A stretch of 64,000 nucleotides of DNA from Nitrospirota bacterium (GTDB lineage Bacteria > Nitrospirota > UBA9217): assembly GCA_046704425.1 (NCBI GenBank), contig JBJKRX010000018.1, positions 20,385 through 84,384 of the forward strand, read 5' to 3'. Position numbers and translations under genes: made by a program. Below the pieces are notes generated by a model. The model saw nothing but the letters and a program-made list of their open reading frames with translations. It ran no database searches and was not told where the DNA came from. Positions 28,347 to 38,677 of this stretch are shown in pieces. Positions within the stretch are counted from its first letter, which is position 1. Every line of letters begins with the position of its first letter.

Positions 28347-29036
28347 TCACGACGCCGGTCCGGCCTTTTTCCGCACAAAGTCCTCGATCGCCGCGGCATC
28401 CTCGGGCGCGACGGTCCCGAATTGCACCCCGTACTTGGCCTCGCCGGATGCGTTCGGAGGCGCGACCTTCCGTACGACCTTTCCGGCGACGGTAATCCGC
28501 TTGTGCCCAGGAAGAAAAAACGAGCAGGCCAGGCGGTCGCCGAGCGATAACGGCCGATCCGACTCGAGCAGCAGACCGGTGGCGCTGATATTCTCCGACC
28601 TGCAGAAAAACGACTTGTTCGCGTCGTCGCCGTTGAGGCTGACGCTCAGGAGAACGCGGTAACATCCGCGGGAGGGGATCGCGAGCAGGGCTTCGGCCTT
28701 TTCGACGAATTGGGCGCTGTTCACCGGGAGCGGGAACATCACGTTCGGCTTGCAGAGCGCGGCGCGTCCCAGCTCTCCGGGCCGGTTCCCGTGGTACAGA
28801 ATGATGGAAACCGCGCGCAGGGCCGCGTCATCACGGATGGTCCGAAAGATCTGCTCACATGCCGCCCCCGGCGCGTCCACCCGCGAGACGATGAGATTCA
28901 CTTTTTCCAGCCGGTGGACCGAGAGAATATCGTCGTTCGTTCTGGCCGTCAGAATCTTCACATCGGCGCGCTGGAAGATGCTTGCGTCTTTCGCAAGGAC
29001 GCTGCCGATCATGTCGTTGATGAGGATCTTCTTCAT
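28347..29036 (-). CDS. PilZ-domain c-di-GMP receptor with N-terminal receiver-like domain
   Basis: The PilZ motifs are RGCYR (RxxxR) and, about 20 aa later, ENISATG (D/NxSxxG). The N-terminal 120 aa resemble a CheY-like REC fold. Confidence 0.6.
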   Translation of the reverse strand: MKKILINDMIGSVLAKDASIFQRADVKILTARTNDDILSVHRLEKVNLIVSRVDAPGAACEQIFRTIRDDAALRAVSIILYHGNRPGELGRAALCKPNVMFPLPVNSAQFVEKAEALLAIPSRGCYRVLLSVSLNGDDANKSFFCRSENISATGLLLESDRPLSLGDRLACSFFLPGHKRITVAGKVVRKVAPPNASGEAKYGVQFGTVAPEDAAAIEDFVRKKAGPAS

Positions 29037-29182: not shown

Positions 29183-30109
29183 ATGAGACTCGTTACGCGC
29201 GGCGACCTCGACGGATTGGTGGCGGCCGTCCTGATCACGACCATGGAGCCGGTGGGTTCTCTGGAGCTGATCCACCCGCAGGACATCACGGACGGGAAGT
29301 TCCCGGTCCGCGAAGGCGACATCCTGTCCAACCTCCCCTATCACCCTTCCTGCTCCCTCTGGTTCGACCACCACGAACTCACGGACAGCAATCCGAAACC
29401 GCCCCCGGTCTTCACGGGCAAACACGCCCTCTTGCCGAGCGTGGCGCGCGTGGTCTTCGATTACTACCACTCCGACAAGCTCGCCCGCTACGAACCGCTG
29501 ATCGCGGAAACGGACCGCTTCGACTCCGCCCGGCTCACGGCAGACGACATCTCCGATCCCCAGGGCGTGGTCCTGCTCGGCTTCACGATCGATCCGCGTA
29601 CGGGACTCGGCATCGACAAAGACATTTTTACGGGCCTCGTAGAATTGCTCAAGACCTCGTCCATGGACGCAGTCCTGGAGACTCCCGAGATCGCGCGCCG
29701 CATCCGACTCTGCCGGGAGAACGATCTCACGGCCCTGCAGACCTTGCAGGACTGTTCGCGTCTGGCGGGGAACGTGATCGTAACGGACTTCCGGACCGTC
29801 GCACAGCCGCCGATCGGCAATCGATTTCTCATCTATCTCGTCCATCCGGAAGGCAATGTGTCCGTGCGCGCCCAATGGGGACCGCAACGGGAGTTCGTTG
29901 CGATCACCGTGGGCCACAGCATCCTGAACCGGACCTGCACGACCGATATCGGCCGCCTGTGCAGCGACTTCGGGGGCGGCGGCCACCACGGCGCGGGAGG
30001 GTTCACGGTAGCACTGCAGGAAGCGAACCGGACACTGGACGCGGTGGTCAAACGGCTGCAGGAGGGGGAGGGACGGATCGCTCAGAAATACCAGTTGAGC
30101 GCCAGGTAG
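29183..30109 (+). CDS. DHH/DHHA1-family phosphoesterase (NrnA/DhhP-like)
   Basis: The product has DLDGL (motif I), WFDHH (the DHH motif) and the DHHA1 motif GGGGHHGAGGF. The RBS is AAGGAG, and the promoter reads TTGCGG-17-TATAAT. Confidence 0.7.
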   Translation: MRLVTRGDLDGLVAAVLITTMEPVGSLELIHPQDITDGKFPVREGDILSNLPYHPSCSLWFDHHELTDSNPKPPPVFTGKHALLPSVARVVFDYYHSDKLARYEPLIAETDRFDSARLTADDISDPQGVVLLGFTIDPRTGLGIDKDIFTGLVELLKTSSMDAVLETPEIARRIRLCRENDLTALQTLQDCSRLAGNVIVTDFRTVAQPPIGNRFLIYLVHPEGNVSVRAQWGPQREFVAITVGHSILNRTCTTDIGRLCSDFGGGGHHGAGGFTVALQEANRTLDAVVKRLQEGEGRIAQKYQLSAR

Positions 30110-31278
30110 GTGAGCTCCGGATAGAGCCCGAACTCGTTTCGCGGCGGCGCGCCTCCCGGTGATTGTCCCCCGATGCTCCGGTAGGCGCCGAGATGTGCGT
30201 AGAGGTTCTCCGAGGCATTGTACTCTACCGTGCCGGAAGCCAGGACGGACCCGTCCCCGAGGTTCACAAGCGCCTGGCCGCGCAGGGTGACGAGGGGGGT
30301 GAGCTCGTACCGGAGGCCGGGCGCGAGATAGTTCCTGCCCAGAAGGTACACCGCGCCCTCGGTGTAGGCCGTGCGCGTCGCGTTCGCGAGATACCCCGCA
30401 GGCCCTTTCGCCCCTGCGCCGTTGTAATGGTATTCCACGAACCCGGAGAGGGAAGAGACGAAGGTGTAATCCGCTCCAACGGATACTCGGGCGTAGCTGC
30501 CGTCGTTCGGGTCCTGCGGCAGGACCTCGGCTGCCTCGAACCACCCCCCTGCCCCGCCGATCGAGCGGGCGAGGCTCACGCCCACAAGGTCGTTCTCCCG
30601 GAATTCCATGGCCATGACGGACACGTCGGTTTGCCACGCCTCGGTCCGCATGCGCGCGAATGCCGCGCTCTGTCCCGCCTCGCAACGCCTCCCGCAGACA
30701 AGCCCCATGTCCAACTCCCCCAGAGAGCCGAAGGGCTTCTTGAACCGGACCGCGTCCACGCCCCGCAGTTCCTCCGTGGCGATGGTCGTAAAGGAAAAGG
30801 GGGCAAGGACATCGGTCGGATTCACCACGCGCGCGGTGCCGAAGGAGATCGGCTGCCTCCCGACGGTCAGATCGTACCCCGTTGCCCTGTGCACCACCAG
30901 GAAGCGGTCGAGGTTCTGATCGAGTTCGAACCCGCTGCCTGCGGGCGGTTCCTGGGGCTCAAGGCGTTCGCGGAGGTCATAGGCCCGATAGTCTCCCAGG
31001 GCAGCGGCAGGGAGCGGCCCTGCGGCATTCCCGTTCGTGCCCACGAGGCGAGGGACCAGTTCGTAGGCAGCCTCTGCGGAGGTGTCTGCGGACGCATCGG
31101 AACGGATCCGGATTCGGACGAGGGACAGGAGTTCCTGCGTGGTCACGCCGTCCTGCCGCGTCACGAGAGCGTAGTTCCTGAGAGACCCCGTGACACCTGC
31201 GGCGCTCGCCCGGATCGCTGCGGGTCCCAGGGCGAGCAGACAGGCGGCGAGTCCCGCGCCGAGTATCCGCCGCCGCAC
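30082..31278 (-). CDS. Predicted outer-membrane beta-barrel protein (signal peptide, C-terminal aromatic residue)
   Basis: The product begins MRRRILGAGLAACLLALGPAAIRASAAG and ends ...YLALNWYF. Its start overlaps the stop of the ABC ATPase gene. Confidence 0.45.
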   Translation of the reverse strand: MRRRILGAGLAACLLALGPAAIRASAAGVTGSLRNYALVTRQDGVTTQELLSLVRIRIRSDASADTSAEAAYELVPRLVGTNGNAAGPLPAAALGDYRAYDLRERLEPQEPPAGSGFELDQNLDRFLVVHRATGYDLTVGRQPISFGTARVVNPTDVLAPFSFTTIATEELRGVDAVRFKKPFGSLGELDMGLVCGRRCEAGQSAAFARMRTEAWQTDVSVMAMEFRENDLVGVSLARSIGGAGGWFEAAEVLPQDPNDGSYARVSVGADYTFVSSLSGFVEYHYNGAGAKGPAGYLANATRTAYTEGAVYLLGRNYLAPGLRYELTPLVTLRGQALVNLGDGSVLASGTVEYNASENLYAHLGAYRSIGGQSPGGAPPRNEFGLYPELTYLALNWYF

Positions 31279-31976
31279 TAGGCCGCCCCCCGGGTCTCGT
31301 CCGAGGCGATCTCGCCGTCCCGCAGCATCACGAGCCGCTTCGCCCGCTCCATGATCATGCCGTCATGGGTCGAAAAGACGAAGGTCATGCCGCGCGTCTC
31401 GTTCAGGGCATGCATCATGTCGAGCAGCGCGGTCCCGGTCGCGGAATCGAGGTTCGCCGTGGGCTCGTCCGCCAGGATGATGTCCGGACGCGAGGCCATG
31501 GCCCGTGCGATCGCCACGCGCTGCTGCTGCCCGCCGGAGAGCTGTTTCGGAAGCCGCTTCTCCATACCGCCGAGCCCCACGTCTTCCAGAAGGGCCGCCA
31601 CGCGCTCCTGCCGCTCGCGATCATCCACGCCCTGCAGCAGCATGATGTACTCGATGTTCTCGCGCACGGTAAGCACCGGGATGAGGTTGTACGACTGGAA
31701 GATGAAACCAATATGGTCCCGCCGGAAATCGGAGAGTTCCCTCCCCCGCATCTCGCTGATGGCCCTCCCCGCCAAAAGCGCGCGCCCCTGAGTCGGGACG
31801 TCGAGCCCGCTCATGATGTAGAGCAGCGTGGTCTTGCCGGACCCCGACGGGCCCGCAAGCGCGGCGAAAGAACCCGGCGCGATGGTCAGGTTCAGGTCCC
31901 GCAAGGCGTGCACCGGCACGCCGTCGGTATGGTAGACCTTCGAAACGTTCTCGATGCGGATGAGCTCGTCCGGCAT
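31278..31976 (-). CDS. lolD: ABC transporter ATP-binding protein (LolD/MacB-type)
   Basis: The product has Walker A (GPSGSGKTT), the signature LSGGQQQRVAIARA and Walker B (ILADEPT). The start was set at MPDELIRIENVSK. Confidence 0.8.
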   Translation of the reverse strand: MPDELIRIENVSKVYHTDGVPVHALRDLNLTIAPGSFAALAGPSGSGKTTLLYIMSGLDVPTQGRALLAGRAISEMRGRELSDFRRDHIGFIFQSYNLIPVLTVRENIEYIMLLQGVDDRERQERVAALLEDVGLGGMEKRLPKQLSGGQQQRVAIARAMASRPDIILADEPTANLDSATGTALLDMMHALNETRGMTFVFSTHDGMIMERAKRLVMLRDGEIASDETRGAA

Positions 31977-31996
31977 GGTTCTCCCTCCTGGGATGG

Positions 31997-33226
31997 CTAC
32001 ATGCTCCGCTGCATGGCCTTCGCGGGCAGGAGCCGCGCGGCGAAGATCGCGGGGTAGATCGCCGCGATCAGCGAAAAGACGCCGATGAGCAGCGGGTAGA
32101 GCGTGAACTGCCTGAGCCGGAACACGGGATAGAGCAGGTCGGTGATGGTCACGCCCGCAAACTCGATGCCCTGGTAATTGATCCCGAAGACGCCCACGAC
32201 CTTGATGATCAGCCAGCCGAGCGCCATGCCCCACAGGATGCTGATGAACGCAAGGGCCGCGGCCTCGAGGAAGATGATGAGCGCCATGTCAACGGGCCGG
32301 GTGCCGACGGCCCGGAGCACCCCGAACTCGAACATCCGTTCGTAGAGCGACATGAAGAGGGTGTTCATGATGATGACCGCCACGATCGCGAAGATGAGGC
32401 CCGTGACGATGGCCGTGGTCATGTCGCTCATCTCCACGACGCTCTGGAGCTGCTTCACGAGCTCTTTCCAGCCCAGGGCCTCGTTCCCGCCTTGGGAATA
32501 CTTCTTCCAGAACGGGAGCCGGGGATTGCCGGCGTCCTGCAGATGATGGAACCGGAGCGCGATCTCGTGCACGCCGCTGCCCAAGGCCAGGAGCCGCTGG
32601 GCCTCATGGATATTGATGAAGGCCGTCCCGCCGTCGAACTCCCGGATGCCCAGGTGGAAGATCCCCCCCACCCGGAACAGGTCCTGGGCGAGCGCGCCCG
32701 TGCCTGCCTCTGCCGTGGTCAGCACCACCCGGTCGCCCACGCCGACCTCGAGCAGCTCCGCCGTCTTGGAGCCGAGCAGGATCTTTCCGTCGTCTCCCGG
32801 CGCGAGCCACTGCCCCTGCCGGATCGCCTTGTCCACGATCGAGATGCGCGGCTCCGTCCGCGGGTCCACGCCGTACAGCATGACCGAGGCGACGCCGTTC
32901 GGCGAGCTCAGCATGGCAAAGGACAGGGTGCGGGGGGTGTAGGCCGCGATGCGCTTCTCCGTCGCCAGAGAGCGCAGGACCGCATCCGAATGGTGGATCA
33001 CGTCCTCCACGGCCATCGTCTCGCGGAATCCTGCTGCGTGGATCTCGCCCTGCCCCAGGAAGGTGTCGGTTGCCGTGCGGATCATGCTTTGCAGCATGCC
33101 GTCCAGCAGGCCGTCGATGAAGATCAGTGAGGCCAGACTGATGCCCACGGCAAGACCGGCCAGGATCGTCCGACGCTTGTTGCGCATCACGTTGCGCCAC
33201 GCAAGCTTGACGTAGAGGAGCTTCAT
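31997..33226 (-). CDS. lolE: FtsX-family ABC permease (LolE/LolC-like, 4 TM with periplasmic domain)
   Basis: The 409-aa ORF has a MacB/Lol-type periplasmic domain followed by C-terminal FtsX transmembrane helices. Confidence 0.75.
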   Translation of the reverse strand: MKLLYVKLAWRNVMRNKRRTILAGLAVGISLASLIFIDGLLDGMLQSMIRTATDTFLGQGEIHAAGFRETMAVEDVIHHSDAVLRSLATEKRIAAYTPRTLSFAMLSSPNGVASVMLYGVDPRTEPRISIVDKAIRQGQWLAPGDDGKILLGSKTAELLEVGVGDRVVLTTAEAGTGALAQDLFRVGGIFHLGIREFDGGTAFINIHEAQRLLALGSGVHEIALRFHHLQDAGNPRLPFWKKYSQGGNEALGWKELVKQLQSVVEMSDMTTAIVTGLIFAIVAVIIMNTLFMSLYERMFEFGVLRAVGTRPVDMALIIFLEAAALAFISILWGMALGWLIIKVVGVFGINYQGIEFAGVTITDLLYPVFRLRQFTLYPLLIGVFSLIAAIYPAIFAARLLPAKAMQRSM

Positions 33227-33227
33227 G

Positions 33228-34445
33228 TCAGTTGGACCTCAACGCCTTGACCGGGACGATGCGCGCCGCGCGCAGGGCGGGCCAGAGGCTCACCAGGACG
33301 GCTGCACCGAAGACCACCCCTGCGGGCAGCAGGATCGATTGGGTGGTGATCTGGGAAGTCATGGTGGTGAAGGCGAAGCCGCCGTACTCGATAGGCGAAG
33401 GATAGGAGATCCCGTGCAGGGAGAGCCACCAGTTCCCTGCCAGCCCGCAGAGCGTGCCTGCCACGATGCTGAGCACGGCCAGGAAGGCCGTCTCGAGCAC
33501 GATGAGCAGAAAGATCTGGGACGGCCGCGAGCCGAGCGCCTTCAGGATGCCGAACTCCCGGGTCCGTTCCAGGATCGCCATGAGCACGGTGTTCAGCACC
33601 CCGACCGCGATGATCACGGTCAGGACCGTCATGGTCCACCAGTTGCCTTTGATGTCCGCCTGCATGGCGGTATAGAACTCGCTCTCGATCACCTGCCAGG
33701 GTTCCACGTCGATCGACGGATCATGCAGGAGCGTCCGGATCTTGCCCACCGTTGCCTCGGTCTTCCGGTAATCATTGAGCACGACGACAAGCTCGTGCAC
33801 GCCGGTCGGCAGAGAGAGGAAGGAGCGCGCCGTTTCGATCGGCAGATAGCACTGGGACATGCCGGCGCCGCCCGTGTCCTCGCGCATGATCCCCGCGACG
33901 CGGAAGAGCCCGTTCGCGATCGACCCGTCCGCCCCCTCGGCGATCAGCGCAACCTCTCCGCCGAGTCCCACCTTGAGGGTCCGGGCCAGGTTGTGGCTCA
34001 GCACGATGCCCTTCGGTGCGTTCGCGGAAACGAACCGTCCCTCGCCGACATGGAGCGCCAGCCGAGTGGTCCGGGGCTCGCGGACCGGGTCGACGCCCAC
34101 GATGCGCGCGCCCGCGGTCCGGGTCCCGGCAAAGGCCAGGGCCGGGGAATAGATCCGGGGAGTCCAGGAACGGACCGCGGGCAGGGAAGCGATCTTCGCG
34201 CCCAGGGCGGTCGGGTGCTGCAGGACCTTGTAGAGCGTCGGCTTGTCGAGATAGCCCTTGGCGTGCACCTGGATGTGGCCGGTATGATCGCGCGTGAATC
34301 CGTCGATGATCGCGCCGTAACTGCCGGACACGAGCCCGAGCGAGATCGCAAAGAGCGCGCAACCGCCCGCCATCATAAGACCGGTCAGGAGGGACCGTGT
34401 CTTGCTCCGGAATATGTTGCGGAATGCGATCTTCGCCGTGACCAT
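33228..34445 (-). CDS. lolC: FtsX-family ABC permease (LolC/LolE-like)
   Basis: The 405-aa ORF is a paralogue of the adjacent permease. The product begins MVTAKIAFRNIFRSKTRSLL. Confidence 0.75.
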   Translation of the reverse strand: MVTAKIAFRNIFRSKTRSLLTGLMMAGGCALFAISLGLVSGSYGAIIDGFTRDHTGHIQVHAKGYLDKPTLYKVLQHPTALGAKIASLPAVRSWTPRIYSPALAFAGTRTAGARIVGVDPVREPRTTRLALHVGEGRFVSANAPKGIVLSHNLARTLKVGLGGEVALIAEGADGSIANGLFRVAGIMREDTGGAGMSQCYLPIETARSFLSLPTGVHELVVVLNDYRKTEATVGKIRTLLHDPSIDVEPWQVIESEFYTAMQADIKGNWWTMTVLTVIIAVGVLNTVLMAILERTREFGILKALGSRPSQIFLLIVLETAFLAVLSIVAGTLCGLAGNWWLSLHGISYPSPIEYGGFAFTTMTSQITTQSILLPAGVVFGAAVLVSLWPALRAARIVPVKALRSN

Positions 34446-34465
34446 GATCGGGGGCGGCAGCCGGT

Positions 34466-35227
34466 TCAGCGCTGCAGGTTCCTGAGCGTAAAGACGTCGG
34501 GCGGCAACGGGGCGTCGAATTGGAGCGTTCGGTAGCGGATGACGGTCTTTTTGTCCGGTGTGTGCAGGGGCCGCATCTCGAGCACCGACGGGATCCGCCG
34601 CTTCCCGAAGGTACGCACGTCGCTGAATTCCAGGACGCGTACGGCATCTCCCCGGTCGTCATAGTAGGTCTCGCGCACGGGCAGCAGGTCCGCCTTGCGC
34701 ACCTGGAGGATGATCTTGGCCCAGACGATGGCCATGTCTTTGTGCGGGGTGAGCTCGACGAAATAGTAGTCTTCGGGCCGCGGCCCTGCGGGGGTCGTGA
34801 GCTGGAATCGGTAGTCCCGGGTGAGCGAACTTTCCTTCACCAGGTCGTCGTTCGTGAAATCAGAGCCCATCCAGGAGCTCATCATCATGGAAGGAGGAAT
34901 CTTCATGACCCGGTCGATCTTGGGAAAGTAGTTCCACATCTCGTTCCCGATGCGGAGCGTGGCAATGCCCGCGTCCTTCCGGGGTGATCGGATGCGGATG
35001 AAGGACTTTTCCCTGCCTGCGGACCAGACGTCCATGGCGAGCGTGCGCGTCCAGTGCTTGGTCACGATGGTCATCTCCACCTCGCCCTGACTCGTGGCGC
35101 TGCGATAGAGGGTGTCTACGGAGTCCACGATGCGTTTCAGCGTTGCGTCGTCCTGCGCCCTGCAAGGGACCGCCGTCGCCGAAAGCAGGAGCAGCGCGAA
35201 GACCGTTGCGCCGATACGTCTCTTCAT
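34466..35227 (-). CDS. LolA-like outer-membrane lipoprotein-sorting protein family (periplasmic, signal peptide)
   Basis: The product begins MKRRIGATVFALLLLSATAVPCRA and continues into a LolA-like beta-barrel region (ATLRIGNEMWNYFPKIDRVMKIPPSMM). It is the first gene of the ABC operon. Confidence 0.6.
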   Translation of the reverse strand: MKRRIGATVFALLLLSATAVPCRAQDDATLKRIVDSVDTLYRSATSQGEVEMTIVTKHWTRTLAMDVWSAGREKSFIRIRSPRKDAGIATLRIGNEMWNYFPKIDRVMKIPPSMMMSSWMGSDFTNDDLVKESSLTRDYRFQLTTPAGPRPEDYYFVELTPHKDMAIVWAKIILQVRKADLLPVRETYYDDRGDAVRVLEFSDVRTFGKRRIPSVLEMRPLHTPDKKTVIRYRTLQFDAPLPPDVFTLRNLQR

Positions 35228-35261: not shown

Positions 35262-35753
35262 TCACGGCCGCTGCCCGAACTTTCTGCGCACCTTGTCCGC
35301 CACAACCGGCGGCACCAGGCTGCTGATATCCCCGCCGTAACTCGCCGCCTCCTTCACGATCGTCGAGGTGATGAACGAATATTCCTCGCTCGGCATGAGG
35401 AAGACCGTCTCGATCTTGCTGTCGAGCCGCCGGTTCATGAGGGCCATCTGCATCTCGTATTCGAAGTCCGATACCGCGCGGAGGCCCCGGATGATGCCCA
35501 CGGCCCTGGTGCGCCGCACGTAGTCCACCAGGAGCCCGTCGAACCCCTCGATCCGCACCCGTTTCCGCAGCCGCGCGAGAGATTTCCGGAAGAGGTCGAT
35601 CCGTTCGTCGAGCGTGAAGAGCGGCTGCTTCCGCGGATTCGCAGCCACGGCCACGATCACCTCATCGAAGATCCGGAGGCTCCGCTCCACGAGGTCGATA
35701 TGCCCGTTCGTGACCGGATCGAAGGTCCCGGGATAGACCGCGATATGTTTCAT
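35262..35753 (-). CDS. coaD: Phosphopantetheine adenylyltransferase
   Basis: The product begins MKHIAVYPGTFDPVTNGHIDLVERS. Confidence 0.85.
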   Translation of the reverse strand: MKHIAVYPGTFDPVTNGHIDLVERSLRIFDEVIVAVAANPRKQPLFTLDERIDLFRKSLARLRKRVRIEGFDGLLVDYVRRTRAVGIIRGLRAVSDFEYEMQMALMNRRLDSKIETVFLMPSEEYSFITSTIVKEAASYGGDISSLVPPVVADKVRRKFGQRP

Positions 35754-35807
35754 GGAAGCTCCTCGGCAGGAGAAAGACGGTTTCAACAATGCAACCTGAA
35801 TCCCGCT

Positions 35808-36377
35808 TCACTCCTGGCTTCTGACATCTGATTCCTGACTTCTGTAGGTATAGAACGCCAGTACCGTATCCCCGTAGCGGACCTCGCGGAACCGCTCCAA
35901 ACCGCCTGCCTGTTCCGGTACGGGCCGTTTCCGGAAATGCTCGACCACCACCACGCCGTCCTGTTTTACAATCCCTGCCTCTCCGATGCGGCGAAGCACT
36001 GGCTCCGGCTCCATGGCGTAGGGCGGGTCAATGAACACGATATCATAGGGACCGGATCGTTTTTGCAGGAAGGCCGTGACGTCCATTGCCAGGACCTGCG
36101 CGCGGTTTGCAAGAACGGTCTCCGCGAGGTTCCGCGTAATCGCCTGGAGCGCAGGCCGGGAGGAATCGACGAAGACCGTCGTCGCCGCGCCGCGGCTGAG
36201 CGCCTCGATCCCAATGCCCCCCGTGCCCGCGAAAAGGTCGAGAAACGCAGCGCCCGGTACGCGGTCACGCAGGATATTGAACAGCGCCTGCCTGACCTTG
36301 TCCGCCGTGGGCCTGACGTCCGATCCCGTGGGGGCGCGCAACCGGCGCCCCTTTGCCGTGCCTCCGGTGACGCGCAT
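35808..36377 (-). CDS. rsmD: 16S rRNA (guanine966-N2)-methyltransferase RsmD
   Basis: The product contains LDLFAGTGGIGIEALSRGA and the DPPY motif (VFIDPPYAM). The rsmD-coaD pair is conserved. Confidence 0.8.
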   Translation of the reverse strand: MRVTGGTAKGRRLRAPTGSDVRPTADKVRQALFNILRDRVPGAAFLDLFAGTGGIGIEALSRGAATTVFVDSSRPALQAITRNLAETVLANRAQVLAMDVTAFLQKRSGPYDIVFIDPPYAMEPEPVLRRIGEAGIVKQDGVVVVEHFRKRPVPEQAGGLERFREVRYGDTVLAFYTYRSQESDVRSQE

Positions 36378-36508
36378 GGGGTGAAGCGGCCCGGCATGCA
36401 GCGCCGCCGCTTGATTTTGATGCTACAGAAAAACCGGACCAGAGTCAAGCAGTTCTTGACAGTTTCCCCGGTTATCGATATACTTGGCCTAGTCTTTCGG
36501 GGGGTACC

Positions 36509-37861
36509 ATGCGCAAACTTCCGGCCCTGACCGTCTTCGTCCTTTTCTCCCTTGCGATCCTCGTTGTCGTACCGACGATTTTTGCGAAGACCTCACCTCC
36601 CCCGCGGTCGTCCTCCCCGGCCGCGCAGGCAGTCGAACCGCCGACGCAGGTCTTCCATATCGCCATCGACGCCCCCATCACGCCGGTCGTGGCCGAATAC
36701 ATCGTAAAATCCATCAGTGCCGCCGAAAATGCCGATGCCGAAGCGATCATCATCGAGCTGAACACGCCGGGGGGACTCGTGGATTCCATGCAGCAGATCG
36801 TCATGAAGATCATGGCCTCCCGCGTTCCGGTCGTCGTATATGTGGGGCCGAGCGGCGCGCGGGCGGCATCGGCCGGAACGTTCATCACCCTTGCCGCGAA
36901 CATCGCGGCCATGGCTCCCACGACCCACCTCGGCGCTGCCCATCCCGTCACCATGGAAGGGAAAATGGACAAGACCATGGAGGTCAAGGTCGTGAACGAC
37001 CTTGCCGCGATGGCGCGCAGCATCGCCGACAAGCGGGGACGGAACGCACAATGGGCCGAGGAGGCCGTGCGCAAGAGCGTTTCGCTCACCGACACCGAGG
37101 CCCTGAAAAAGGGCGTGATCGACCTGATCGCACCAGACGTCCCCACGCTCGTCAAGGACCTCGACGGGAGAACGGTGGAACTGGCCTCCGGCAAGCGGAC
37201 GCTCGCCACGCGCAACGCGACGATCCACGAGGTACACATGGGGTTCCGGTACCGGCTGCTCGAGCTCATCGGCAACCCCAACATCGCGTATATCCTGATG
37301 ATCCTCGGGTTCTACGGCCTCTACTTCGAGCTGGCCAATCCCGGCGCGGTCCTCCCCGGGGTGGCGGGTGCCATCTGCCTGGTCCTCGCCTTCTACGCGC
37401 TCCACACCCTTCCGATCAACTATGCCGGCCTCCTCCTCATTATCATCGGCATCGGCCTGTTCATCGCCGAGGCCTTCATCACGAGCCACGGCATCCTCGG
37501 CATCGGGGGAGTGGTTTCCATGCTGCTCGGCTCGGTCATGCTCATCGACTCACCAGCCCCCTTCCTGCAGCTCTCCTGGGCCGTGATCCTGCCTGCCGTG
37601 GTGGTTTCGGCGGTCCTCTTCATAATCACCGTGACCGTCGCCGTCCGGGTCTTCCGGGAGAAGCCCGACACGGGAAAAGAAGGGCTCATCGGCATGCAGG
37701 CGGTTGCCAAGACGGACATCCGCCAGGACGGCCAGGTCTTCCTGCGCGGGGAATACTGGACCGCCTGGAGCGATGAACCGATCGTTGCGGGAACCCAAGT
37801 GACCGTCGTTGCGATCGAAGGGCTTCGGCTCAAGGTGGCACCCAAACCGCAAACGTCGTAA
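36509..37861 (+). CDS. nfeD: NfeD-family membrane-bound ClpP-class serine protease (stomatin operon partner)
   Basis: The product has a signal/TM segment and a ClpP-like domain (GGLVDSMQQIV...GARAASAGTFI). It also has a multi-TM segment and a C-terminal OB domain. Confidence 0.75.
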   Translation: MRKLPALTVFVLFSLAILVVVPTIFAKTSPPPRSSSPAAQAVEPPTQVFHIAIDAPITPVVAEYIVKSISAAENADAEAIIIELNTPGGLVDSMQQIVMKIMASRVPVVVYVGPSGARAASAGTFITLAANIAAMAPTTHLGAAHPVTMEGKMDKTMEVKVVNDLAAMARSIADKRGRNAQWAEEAVRKSVSLTDTEALKKGVIDLIAPDVPTLVKDLDGRTVELASGKRTLATRNATIHEVHMGFRYRLLELIGNPNIAYILMILGFYGLYFELANPGAVLPGVAGAICLVLAFYALHTLPINYAGLLLIIIGIGLFIAEAFITSHGILGIGGVVSMLLGSVMLIDSPAPFLQLSWAVILPAVVVSAVLFIITVTVAVRVFREKPDTGKEGLIGMQAVAKTDIRQDGQVFLRGEYWTAWSDEPIVAGTQVTVVAIEGLRLKVAPKPQTS

Positions 37862-37900
37862 CGGCGTCGATTTCAAAAAAAATACAGGAGGTGCGTCATC

Positions 37901-38677
37901 ATGTCGGAGTACGTGGGAACCGGTCTGGTCTTTACCGTAGTCATCATCGTCCTGGTCCTGTTCAACATCATCAAGGTCCTGAAACAGTACGAGCGCGGCG
38001 TCATCTTCACCCTCGGCAAGGTCAGCACCACCGGCGGCGTCAAAGGACCGGGGGTCATCTTCCTCCTGCCGGGAATCCAAAAGATGGTCCGCGTGAGCCT
38101 TCGGACGGTGACCATGGACGTCCCCTCCCAGGACGTGATCACAAAGGACAACGTAACCGTCAAGGTGAACGCCGTGGTCTACTTCCGGGTCATCGACCCC
38201 CGGAATGCGATCATCGAGGTCGAAGACTTCTACTACGCCACCTCCCTTATCTCGCAGACCACCCTGCGGAGCGTACTCGGCCAGAACGCCCTCGACGATT
38301 TGCTCTCGAACCGCGAGGCGATCAACGCAGAGCTGCAAAAGGTGATCGATCTGCAGACCGAGCCCTGGGGCATCAAGGTCACGTCCGTGGAGGTCAAGAA
38401 CGTGGATCTGCCGCCCGATATGCAGCGGGCCATCGCGATCCAGGCCCAGGCGGAGCGCGAACGACGGGCCAAGATCATCCACGCCGAGGGCGAACTCCAG
38501 GCGTCCACGAAGCTGGCCGAGGCAGCCGATGTCATCAGCAAGAATTCGACGTCGCTACAGCTCCGGTACCTTCAGACCCTGACCGAGATCGCCTCGGAAA
38601 AGAACTCGACGATCGTATTTCCGCTGCCGCTCGACCTGATCTCCTCGTTCATGCAACTGCTCGGGAAAAAGGGGTAG
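37901..38677 (+). CDS. SPFH/band-7 (stomatin-like) protein
   Basis: The product contains [12 protein letters not shown]...[26 protein letters not shown]. Confidence 0.85.

Follow-up and report, generated by a model that had tools for sequence, protein, structure and literature searches.

AmeABCD of Castellaniella defragrans combines an HAE3 RND pump with a DUF1329 protein of the LolA superfamily and a DUF1302 outer-membrane protein, and confers monoterpene tolerance (PMC6394551). Cofitness of DUF1302, DUF1329, BNR and RND genes has been reported in Shewanella and Pseudomonas (bioRxiv 10.1101/072470). For Borrelia BBJ23-29, an in-silico proposal published in 2026 suggested an exporter of lipoproteins or of a non-polar ligand (PMC13078400). 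P. gingivalis LolA3 (PGN0947, PDB 9TP6) binds LolB weakly and was assigned a separate function (PMC13103446), and deletion of F. johnsoniae lolA3 (Fjoh_0605) gave no gliding or T9SS phenotype (PMC11885536). The Bacteroidota PG1175-81 operon, which is induced by iron/haem limitation, includes the 'porin' PG1178. Here we describe a Nitrospirota locus in which a LolA-like carrier, two FtsX permeases, an ABC ATPase and an outer-membrane barrel are encoded side by side. By the window we mean the whole 64-kb stretch of DNA that was analysed.

The five-gene unit and its distribution

The original prediction placed a five-gene envelope operon at 30082-35227, and all five open reading frames were recovered exactly as it described them, on the minus strand:

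35227..34466, minus strand: LolA-like carrier gene, 253 aa, Pfam match to PF17131
34445..33228, minus strand: permease 1 gene, 405 aa, MacB_PCD and FtsX
33226..31997, minus strand: permease 2 gene, 409 aa, FtsX and MacB_PCD
31976..31278, minus strand: ABC ATPase gene, 232 aa, ABC_tran
31278..30082, minus strand: outer-membrane barrel gene, 398 aa, GTG start, no Pfam or NCBIfam model

The genes are tightly packed, with spacers of 20 nt, 1 nt and 20 nt in gene order and then a 1-nt overlap. This overlap, also foreseen, can be read directly in the sequence (TAGTG), where the GTG start of the barrel and the stop codon of the ATPase have one base in common. The expected lolCDE-like layout, i.e. two FtsX permeases of about 400 aa and a separate 232-aa ATPase, was found as well. 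Three co-directional features precede the module:

35789..35262, minus strand: coaD, Pfam CTP_transf_like
36377..35808, minus strand: rsmD-like methyltransferase gene, Pfam Cons_hypoth95
36420..36448, minus strand: sigma-70-like promoter match preceding the rsmD-like gene, agreeing with the consensus at 9 of 12 positions, a consensus match only

Apart from the last of these, the minus strand has no sigma-70-like promoter match in the vicinity of the module; the consensus scan found no promoter-like site within the five-gene block, and terminator-like sites in the block are no more than expected by chance. The gap between the coaD stop and the carrier start is only 34 nt, and both coaD and the rsmD-like gene are probably co-transcribed with the module in the source genome. 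They lie outside the conserved unit, since neither is kept beside the module in other genomes.

Synteny was followed in 80 loci, the best tblastn matches, of which 72 are untruncated by a contig end; the distant part of the barrel family lies outside this sample. The order carrier-permease-permease-ATPase-barrel on one strand is kept in 66 of the 72 untruncated loci, and permease 1 precedes permease 2 in all 66 of these complete colinear loci. No flanking gene beyond the five is conserved across the loci examined. The five-gene arrangement is a real unit, and chance arrangement is ruled out. It could be argued that the barrel is an unrelated neighbour and that the transporter comprises the first four genes only: the barrel belongs to no family recognisable in Pfam or NCBIfam, and it occurs without ABC genes in 3 of the 72 loci (L006, L010 and L019). 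We give this reading almost no credence, as the barrel start overlaps the ATPase stop, no promoter-like site was found between the two genes, the barrel follows the ATPase in 69 of the 72 loci and it follows PF17131 genes even where an MMPL pump replaces the ABC genes. Membership of the barrel in the operon, as first supposed, is thus borne out by the kept order, the overlap and the lack of a promoter-like site. The synteny data already contradict an unrelated barrel.

The sampled loci are labelled Nitrospirota, Desulfobacterota, Nitrospinota, Ignavibacteria, Aminicenantes/Acidobacteriota, Latescibacterota, Calditrichia, Zixibacteria, KSB1, Poribacteria, Elusimicrobiota, Bdellovibrionota and a spirochaete. 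Chromosome 2 of the Vibrio harveyi group likewise carries the module, and rearranged versions occur on megaplasmids of Persicobacter, Ralstonia and Burkholderia; the Ralstonia/Burkholderia plasmids have the order carrier-ATPase-fused 830-aa double permease-barrel. The suggestion of a lineage-specific variant therefore has to be dropped, because the module spans about a dozen phyla in addition to Vibrio, Ralstonia and Burkholderia. A TetR regulator gene adjoins the module in 10 of the 72 loci (there is none in the 64-kb window), and one MAG has the module twice (L035 and L060). TetR linkage, duplication within a single MAG and location on megaplasmids or chromosome 2 suggest that the module is accessory. 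Ralstonia and Burkholderia carry canonical Lol. Canonical LolA and LolB exist in the genus Vibrio, as seen from the V. cholerae proteins (PMC13103446).

Could the locus be the housekeeping Lol system of the source lineage, a divergent LolCDE-LolA with the barrel in place of LolB? The lolCDE-like layout would fit, many phyla are devoid of LolB (PMC13103446, PMC11885536), and the 64-kb window contains no canonical lolA or lolCDE and no other FtsX, ABC or LolA gene. We regard this explanation as very improbable.

Carrier, ABC motor and barrel

When PF03548 and PF17131 were compared on the periplasmic protein, the Pfam scan gave PF17131 LolA_like alone (167 bits, E 3.5e-49) and no PF03548 match, so the partner is not a bona fide LolA, in agreement with what had been anticipated. 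The score is above the PF17131 gathering threshold, and the carrier shares the fold of solved members of this family, which is also labelled 'LolA_like', 'TP_0789-like' and 'LolA3'. The protein has a Sec type-I signal peptide without a lipobox and, because the signal peptide is of type I, it should be soluble. Its predicted structure has the LolA fold, as in LolA and LolB, at a large structural distance from both. The best structural match is 4Z48, deposited as a DUF1329 family protein; the Pfam scan gave no PF07044 (DUF1329) match at E<=0.1. One segment of the carrier stands out:

34844..34897, minus strand: Met/Trp-rich carrier motif PPSMMMSSWMGSDFTNDD, residues 111-128, invariant

This motif is unchanged in all 32 carrier homologues compared and nearly identical in the carriers of Vibrio, Ralstonia, a spirochaete and Bacteriovorax. 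In the model it is located in short lid helices of the LolA fold, including helices 117-120 and 126-130, where the model is least confident (pLDDT about 58-65). The motif could serve as a ligand lid or as a docking surface.

Both permeases have MacB_PCD and FtsX domains according to Pfam, and they share 29% identity. Their scores against TIGR02212 (lolCE), 109 bits for permease 1 and 121 bits for permease 2, are below the cut-off of 362. The closest solved relatives of permease 1 are LolF (E 1e-15), then YtrF, MacB and LolE, whereas permease 2 aligns near full length to LolF (E 6e-21) and E. coli LolC (E 5e-14). The alignments to LolF, LolC and LolE span nearly the whole permeases, periplasmic domain included; the MacB match to permease 2 is restricted to the membrane part, and one MacB entry also aligns to permease 1 from residue 181. 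A segment of permease 2 is about 5 residues shorter than the LolC sequence to which it aligns, PSASQFTPMGRIP, presumably the LolA-binding Hook. The ATPase (ABC_tran, E 4.7e-37) has an intact Walker A (GPSGSGKTT), signature (LSGGQQQR) and Walker B (ILADEPT). Its best NCBIfam model is LolD TIGR02211, which at 206 bits does not reach the cut-off of 308; the FtsE, DarD, DevA and MacB models score it almost equally. Type VII ABC transporters are defined by permeases in which a transmembrane helix at the N-terminus is followed by a large MacB_PCD domain in the periplasm and an FtsX domain at the C-terminus, and by a cognate ATPase; the MacB_PCD and FtsX domains of both permeases and the intact Walker and signature motifs of the ATPase place the proteins in this class. 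Judged from their sequences, permeases 1 and 2 are a predicted heterodimer of such a MacB/FtsX-type transporter from a Lol-like lineage. That the system is distinct from canonical Lol, as originally proposed, agrees with ABC proteins under the Lol family cut-offs and a carrier structurally far from LolA and LolB.

The barrel protein begins with a signal peptide, terminates in Phe and gave no Pfam or NCBIfam match, even though a profile search with its family yields 4,440 clusters at 50% identity. The model is confident (pLDDT 85, pTM 0.81) and has 18 strands, with long loops L2, L3, L7 and L9 at extracellular positions. Structure comparison places it nearest to the substrate-specific channels OccAB/OprD and AlgE; the best matches include OccAB4/BenP, OpdQ, ChiP and maltoporin, at sequence identities of 7-13%. 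An 18-stranded barrel with constriction loops, which characterises OprD/Occ channels structurally, is what the model displays. Note that OprD/Occ channels classically serve uptake, a counter-indication to export. Among 49 barrel-family members scanned at E<=5 there was no match to an OprD-family Pfam model or to PF06980 (DUF1302). A Ralstonia member of the family has a sub-threshold PF06980 match (19.8 bits vs 23.2), therefore the barrel family may be distantly related to DUF1302. The most conserved part of the protein is the following:

30799..30861, minus strand: barrel segment GRQPIxFGxARVVNPTDVLAPF, residues 140-160, predicted loop L3

In the strand map of the model, L3 takes the position of the constriction loop of OprD-type channels. 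Residues G140, R141, G147, P154, T155 and D156 are invariant, and invariant residues concentrate in the L3 and L7 loops and at charged strand positions. The L3 motif is also kept in Vibrio, and a GRxxIxWG...NPxD version is kept in a Haliovirga member that is linked to an MMPL pump.

Exchangeable motor and proposed function

This Haliovirga TetR-MMPL-PF17131 cluster includes a barrel that matches the family by hmmsearch (E 1e-20) and by hhalign (probability 98%). A Fusobacteriia MAG has a TetR-MMPL-PF17131-barrel operon, and another contig has TetR-PF17131-barrel only, with no transporter nearby. The carrier-barrel pair is the constant core, and the motor is exchangeable between split or fused ABC transporters and MMPL/RND-type pumps.

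We are somewhat inclined to regard the module as a self-contained accessory trans-envelope machine that works on the Lol principle without being the Lol pathway itself, and that exports hydrophobic or amphiphilic cargo. Cargo would be handed to the soluble LolA-fold carrier of the PF17131/LolA3 family, the carrier would pass it to the dedicated 18-stranded OprD/AlgE-like barrel, and the barrel would release it from the cell or into the outer membrane. Export as the direction is suggested solely by the classes of the inner-membrane partners, and hand-over via the carrier is likewise our inference. Bulk lipoproteins are a less likely cargo than a lipid or a small hydrophobic or amphiphilic molecule, to judge from the recurrence of TetR, the swapping of ABC for MMPL and the OprD-like channel.

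A dedicated lipoprotein exporter would use the same parts in a different way. The ABC transporter would extract a particular lipoprotein or a limited set of lipoproteins, the carrier would shuttle this cargo, and the barrel would replace LolB as an insertase or surface-exposure device. Such a role would suit permeases whose nearest solved relatives are LolF, LolC and LolE, an ATPase with LolD as best model and a carrier with the LolA/LolB fold, and it is the one proposed for the Borrelia cluster of LolA-like protein, MacB-like ABC and outer-membrane barrel (PMC13078400). However, the loci examined have no conserved lipoprotein gene beside the module, and the region aligned to the presumed LolC Hook is shortened. 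The barrel is modelled as OprD/AlgE-type with conserved constriction loops and not as an Omp85, Slam or LptD-type insertase. Moreover, the carrier-barrel pair also partners MMPL pumps, which are exporters of lipids and small molecules, and TetR regulators usually sense small ligands. We therefore consider lipoprotein export unlikely.

Transport could also run inwards, as has been proposed for DUF1302/DUF1329-type proteins in hydrocarbon use: the barrel would admit a hydrophobic nutrient, the carrier would chaperone it across the periplasm and the ABC transporter would receive it or only support the process. The best structural matches of the barrel (OccAB4/BenP, OpdQ, ChiP, maltoporin) are uptake channels, the related TetR-carrier-barrel contig has no exporter nearby, and hydrocarbon-degradation clusters repeatedly contain LolA-like and DUF1329 genes (PMC12583861; bioRxiv 10.1101/072470). 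The classes of the inner-membrane partners favour export, and we find uptake a rather improbable role.

Returning to an exporter of small hydrophobic or amphiphilic cargo, a broader reading is possible, and we put it forward tentatively. The PF17131 carrier and the unnamed 18-strand barrel could form a general, unrecognised periplasm-to-outer-membrane conduit of diderms that can be plugged onto split or fused type VII ABC transporters or onto MMPL/RND pumps. Distantly related to the larger DUF1329/DUF1302 pair, it would be a third envelope-crossing architecture beside the Lol/Lpt routes and adaptor-TolC pumps.

If the module is indeed an accessory exporter of such cargo, many bacteria own a second Lol-like route, in about a dozen mostly uncultured phyla as well as in the Vibrio harveyi group and on Ralstonia/Burkholderia megaplasmids. 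The proteins concerned are currently annotated as 'lipoprotein-sorting protein', 'ABC permease' and 'hypothetical protein'. A large barrel family absent from Pfam and NCBIfam gains a context and a testable role, and the 'LolA3' proteins, structurally solved but functionally puzzling, gain a partner. A soluble LolA-fold carrier with a dedicated barrel suggests a modular route for greasy molecules across the periplasm, whatever the motor. As the module occurs in tractable strains, e.g. V. campbellii ATCC BAA-1116, the question is experimentally approachable.

Comparison with known systems

With LolCDE-LolA-LolB of the E. coli type and its LolDF variant, the module shares two MacB_PCD and FtsX permeases of about 400 aa, a separate ATPase and a soluble LolA-fold partner. 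The logic of inner-membrane extraction, shuttling and delivery is likely alike. However, all three ABC proteins score below the NCBIfam Lol cut-offs, the carrier is PF17131 and not PF03548, and permease 2 falls about 5 residues short of LolC at the presumed Hook. The acceptor is a predicted integral 18-strand barrel, whereas Lol has the lipoprotein LolB. Unlike canonical Lol, the module appears accessory and is patchily distributed, and some copies are on plasmids, duplicated or linked to TetR.

AmeABCD and the DUF1302-DUF1329 clusters resemble the module in that one operon encodes an inner-membrane exporter releasing into the periplasm, together with a periplasmic member of the LolA superfamily and an outer-membrane barrel of its own. 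The motor differs, being an ATP-driven type VII ABC transporter here and an HAE3 RND pump in AmeABCD, and the BNR/Ycf48-like protein of the DUF1302/DUF1329/BNR/RND clusters is missing from the module. Both outer components are smaller (carrier 253 aa vs about 450, barrel 398 aa vs about 600) and are below the Pfam thresholds for DUF1329 and DUF1302. The PG1175-81 operon differs in its MMPL motor, and no FtsX permeases have been reported there. In Borrelia BBJ23-29, too, a LolA-like protein is encoded in a cluster with a MacB-like ABC and an outer-membrane barrel, but the barrel there is Omp85-type, which that of the module is not.

MacAB-TolC and DevBCA-HgdD belong to the same MacB_PCD and FtsX ABC superfamily, and their export likewise starts on the periplasmic side and crosses the outer membrane. 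These systems have a membrane-fusion (HlyD-family) adaptor and a TolC-type trimeric duct, whereas in the module a soluble LolA-fold protein and a predicted monomer-type 18-strand barrel stand in their place.

Five-gene block and its surroundings

The original prediction described a lolCDE-like operon with its own beta-barrel, and its gene sizes, gene order, overlap and family assignments were all correct, since the ORF coordinates, the TAGTG overlap and the Pfam assignments agree with them. ORF reading of the window gives exactly five minus-strand ORFs in the predicted interval.

Genes of the block
35227..34466, minus strand: carrier, 253 aa, PF17131 LolA_like
34445..33228, minus strand: permease 1, 405 aa, MacB_PCD and FtsX
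33226..31997, minus strand: permease 2, 409 aa, MacB_PCD and FtsX
31976..31278, minus strand: ATPase, 232 aa, ABC_tran
31278..30082, minus strand: barrel, 398 aa, no Pfam or NCBIfam match

In gene order the intergenic gaps are 20 nt, 1 nt and 20 nt, followed by the overlap, in which the ATPase stop TAG and the barrel start GTG have one base in common (TAGTG). Between the two LolA families considered in the prediction, Pfam assigns the carrier to PF17131 LolA_like (167 bits, E 3.5e-49); PF03548 LolA is not matched. A consensus scan found no promoter-like site within the block; the sole minus-strand site is found ahead of the rsmD-like and coaD genes, which themselves lie upstream of the block. 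The neighbours of the block are unrelated housekeeping genes (Lhr helicase, DUF6544, PilZ, coaD, rsmD-like, NfeD and SPFH). The 64-kb window holds no paralogues of the five module proteins and no other FtsX, ABC or LolA genes, and is thus uninformative about a canonical Lol system. It also has no tRNA genes and no Rfam families at the gathering threshold. Its GC content is 56-67% throughout and is lower around 38-46 kb and 50-52 kb. At 30082-30109 the 3' ends of the barrel gene and a convergent ORF share 28 nt.

Features near the block
28347..29036, minus strand: PilZ gene
29183..30109, plus strand: convergent ORF, 308 aa, coding-type GC3 bias (0.82), no Pfam match
36420-36484: back-to-back promoter-like sites between the rsmD-like gene (minus) and the NfeD/SPFH pair (plus); the plus-strand site has 11 of 12 consensus positions
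36509..38677, plus strand: NfeD/SPFH gene pair

The closest solved structure for both permeases is LolF (E 6e-21 for permease 2 and 1e-15 for permease 1), followed by LolC and LolE for permease 2 and by YtrF, MacB and then LolE for permease 1. Against the Lol permeases, the aligned part starts at about residue 80 and extends to the C-terminus, periplasmic domain included. MacB aligns with permease 2 in the membrane part only, and with permease 1 one MacB entry aligns also from residue 181. On these alignments the two permeases form a Lol-like branch of the type VII ABC transporters. Opposite the LolC stretch that corresponds to the LolA-binding Hook, permease 2 has about five residues fewer. 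One could regard the block as a housekeeping Lol variant, but it fails the family cut-offs: the permeases reach 109 and 121 bits in the curated LolCE model (cut-off 362), and the ATPase reaches 206 in the LolD model (cut-off 308), with the FtsE, DarD, DevA and MacB models nearly tied.

Conservation of the barrel within the unit

Hundreds of barrel homologues were found, all annotated as hypothetical and none with a Pfam domain. From 49 of them an alignment (A1) was made; as the query of a genome-collection scan it matched at least 541 species genomes. We compared the five window proteins against 81 loci, namely the 80 best matches of the scan, which are the closest relatives, and one further related locus, L001. 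Nine of the 81 are interrupted by a contig end. Among the other 72, the order carrier, permease 1, permease 2, ATPase, barrel on one strand is kept in 66 (92%); in the six deviating loci we find the barrel alone (three), permease 2 with ATPase and barrel (two) or ATPase with barrel (one). By title, the colinear loci come from Nitrospirota, Desulfobacteraceae, Nitrospina, Ignavibacteria, Aminicenantes/Acidobacteriota, Latescibacterota, Calditrichia, Zixibacteria, KSB1, Poribacteria, Elusimicrobiota, Bacteriovorax/Oligoflexia and Sediminispirochaeta. The original prediction had allowed that the barrel might be an unrelated neighbour with its own promoter. Such chance adjacency is refuted by the synteny data, and no promoter-like site lies in the block.

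The two permeases are only 29% identical, yet each is identifiable as the first or second gene in 66 of 66 complete colinear loci, and for this reason the permease heterodimer is ancient. A TetR-family regulator directly adjoins the module on the same strand in 10 loci; flank clustering of the 72 loci revealed no other conserved flanking gene and no biosynthetic or cargo genes beside the module. The lone barrel genes (L006 7986-9176, L010 and L019, two of the three in Nitrospirota) have no ABC or carrier genes with them, and that of L006 adjoins thiD-like kinase, NUDIX, HEAT-repeat and PilZ genes. One Ignavibacteria MAG has two module copies on different contigs (L035, CAZEDM010000019.1; L060, CAZEDM010000001.1). 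Complete MAG chromosomes with the module include CP070632.1, CP070669.1 and OY970122.1.

The barrel model has 18 strands (pLDDT 85, pTM 0.81) with long loops at the predicted extracellular positions L2, L3, L7 and L9. In structural comparison maltoporin and Wzi come at about 20 and Omp85 proteins at only about 12. Invariant residues cluster in loop L3 (GRQPIxFGxARVVNPTD), around L7 (EYHYNG.G), in L9 and at charged strand positions, a pattern that would fit a substrate-specific channel with a polar lumen. In 120 of 120 homologues the sequence ends with Phe or Tyr. At E<=1e-3 a profile search among 1.84 billion cluster representatives recovers 4,440 family members, of which 936 remain at E<=1e-30. 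No Pfam family is consistently matched by the 49 members scanned, and the profile matches among PDB sequences only ribosomal protein L10, spuriously.

Arrangements in cultured bacteria

In Vibrio campbellii, carrier, permease, permease, ATPase and barrel lie on a 2.06-Mb replicon between GGDEF and chemoreceptor genes; the carrier cluster has 314 members over V. harveyi, V. campbellii and V. owensii, including AGU98730.1 of V. campbellii ATCC BAA-1116. The same five genes occur on a Persicobacter megaplasmid (L086). On plasmids of Ralstonia pickettii, R. insidiosa and Burkholderia thailandensis the module is rearranged to carrier, ATPase, a fused 830-aa double FtsX permease and barrel, and a UbiB/ABC1-family kinase gene is always next. 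The Ralstonia and Burkholderia copies share their islands with genes for a heavy-metal P-type ATPase, YHS, FtsH and isoprenylcysteine methyltransferase; the annotation adds a cupredoxin for Burkholderia alone and PPK2 for Ralstonia alone.

The barrel family is also found with other partners. Haliovirga abyssi has a TetR-MMPL-PF17131 cluster with a barrel-family member two genes later (hmmsearch E 1e-20, hhalign probability 98%), in a Fusobacteriia MAG the TetR, MMPL, PF17131 and barrel genes are consecutive, and one further contig has TetR-PF17131-barrel with no transporter adjoining. Since the barrel family accompanies PF17131 genes where the ABC genes are absent, the carrier-barrel pair looks like the constant core of the system, and the inner-membrane motor is exchangeable.

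Variant arrangements (coordinates within each locus)
L082 8764-13865: rearranged module, Ralstonia pickettii pRp12D0
L083 8595-13696: rearranged module, Burkholderia thailandensis p1
L091 642-3101; L089 2569-8089; L085 3438-9876: carrier-barrel pairs without ABC genes (TetR/MMPL type or transporter-less)
L087 4045-9666; L088 4052-9681: third arrangement, Persicobacter megaplasmids

This third arrangement (TetR, a 378-389-aa protein, ATPase, FtsX, FtsX, PF17131) is present in Persicobacter in addition to the standard module on another replicon. The 378-389-aa protein has no Pfam match and only a GxQxIxFGS-like motif in common with the barrel family; membership of the 389-aa protein was rejected (hhalign probability 5%, not significant).

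The carrier has an almost invariant Met/Trp-rich segment, PPSMMMSSWMGSDFTNDD (window 34844-34897, minus strand), within a block of about 40 residues that is far more conserved than the remaining carrier, from Nitrospirota to Vibrio and Ralstonia; in the carrier model it is located in low-confidence lid helices, and it could act in ligand binding, docking or metal binding. The metal-resistance islands around the Ralstonia and Burkholderia copies suggested a copper- or silver-binding motif. We set this aside as a main hypothesis, since neither Vibrio nor Ralstonia retains the Met triplet and the partners are of the kind found in hydrophobic exporters.

Proposed function and known relatives

We infer that the module is an accessory exporter working on the Lol principle, with a cargo that would be hydrophobic or amphiphilic. 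The soluble LolA-fold protein would take over the cargo, and the dedicated barrel would release it outside or into the outer membrane. The direction of transport is deduced from the motor classes. Type VII ABC transporters work as extractors or as exporters. HAE3/MMPL pumps discharge substrates into the periplasm (PMC6394551). Uptake through the barrel would have the predicted Occ-like fold and the TetR-carrier-barrel contig without a transporter speaking for it, and the exporter-type motors speak against it.

A housekeeping lipoprotein pathway is unlikely because of the failed family cut-offs and the distribution. The module is patchily distributed, occurs on megaplasmids and in two copies in one MAG, and has TetR regulators recurring beside it; it is also present in Vibrio, and LolA and LolB of V. 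cholerae have been purified and studied (PMC13103446). Experimental data on LolA3 relatives agree with a non-housekeeping role. The second-best structural match of the carrier model is P. gingivalis LolA3 (PDB 9TP6), which lacks both signature residues, the Arg of LolA and the Leu of LolB, shows only weak binding to LolB and has been assigned a separate function (PMC13103446). Deletion of lolA3 in F. johnsoniae leaves gliding and type IX secretion unaffected (PMC11885536). In P. gingivalis the lolA3 gene neighbours are a 'porin', an MMPL transporter and a TetR regulator, and the operon is among the strongest induced under iron or haem limitation (PMC10434189, PMC13096392). A link to this 'porin' (PG1178) was sought through the Haliovirga barrel homologue, and its 7 relatives included none from Porphyromonas.

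A possible alternative is a dedicated lipoprotein exporter of the kind that in-silico work suggested for the Borrelia BBJ23-29 cluster (PMC13078400). The barrel of that cluster is an Omp85 protein, whereas here an OprD/AlgE-type channel is predicted, and no lipoprotein gene accompanies the module.

We found no description of an ABC-PF17131-barrel module in the full-text literature, including searches for LolA-like with FtsX, PF17131 and TP0789; the parts are named 'outer membrane lipoprotein-sorting protein', 'ABC transporter permease' and 'hypothetical protein' in databases. Among systems with experimental support, AmeABCD of Castellaniella defragrans comes closest to the whole architecture: it joins an HAE3 RND pump to a DUF1329 protein of the LolA superfamily and an outer-membrane protein of the DUF1302 family, and deleting AmeABCD lowers monoterpene tolerance (PMC6394551). 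DUF1302, DUF1329, BNR and RND genes are cofit in Shewanella and Pseudomonas (bioRxiv 10.1101/072470; 10.1101/2020.07.04.188060). As a Ralstonia barrel-family member has a sub-threshold DUF1302 match (19.8 bits, threshold 23.2), the carrier-barrel pair described here and the DUF1329/DUF1302 pair may be distant relatives. The module is a novel form of the Lol-type ABC extractors and LolA-fold carrier/barrel systems, and not a new category.
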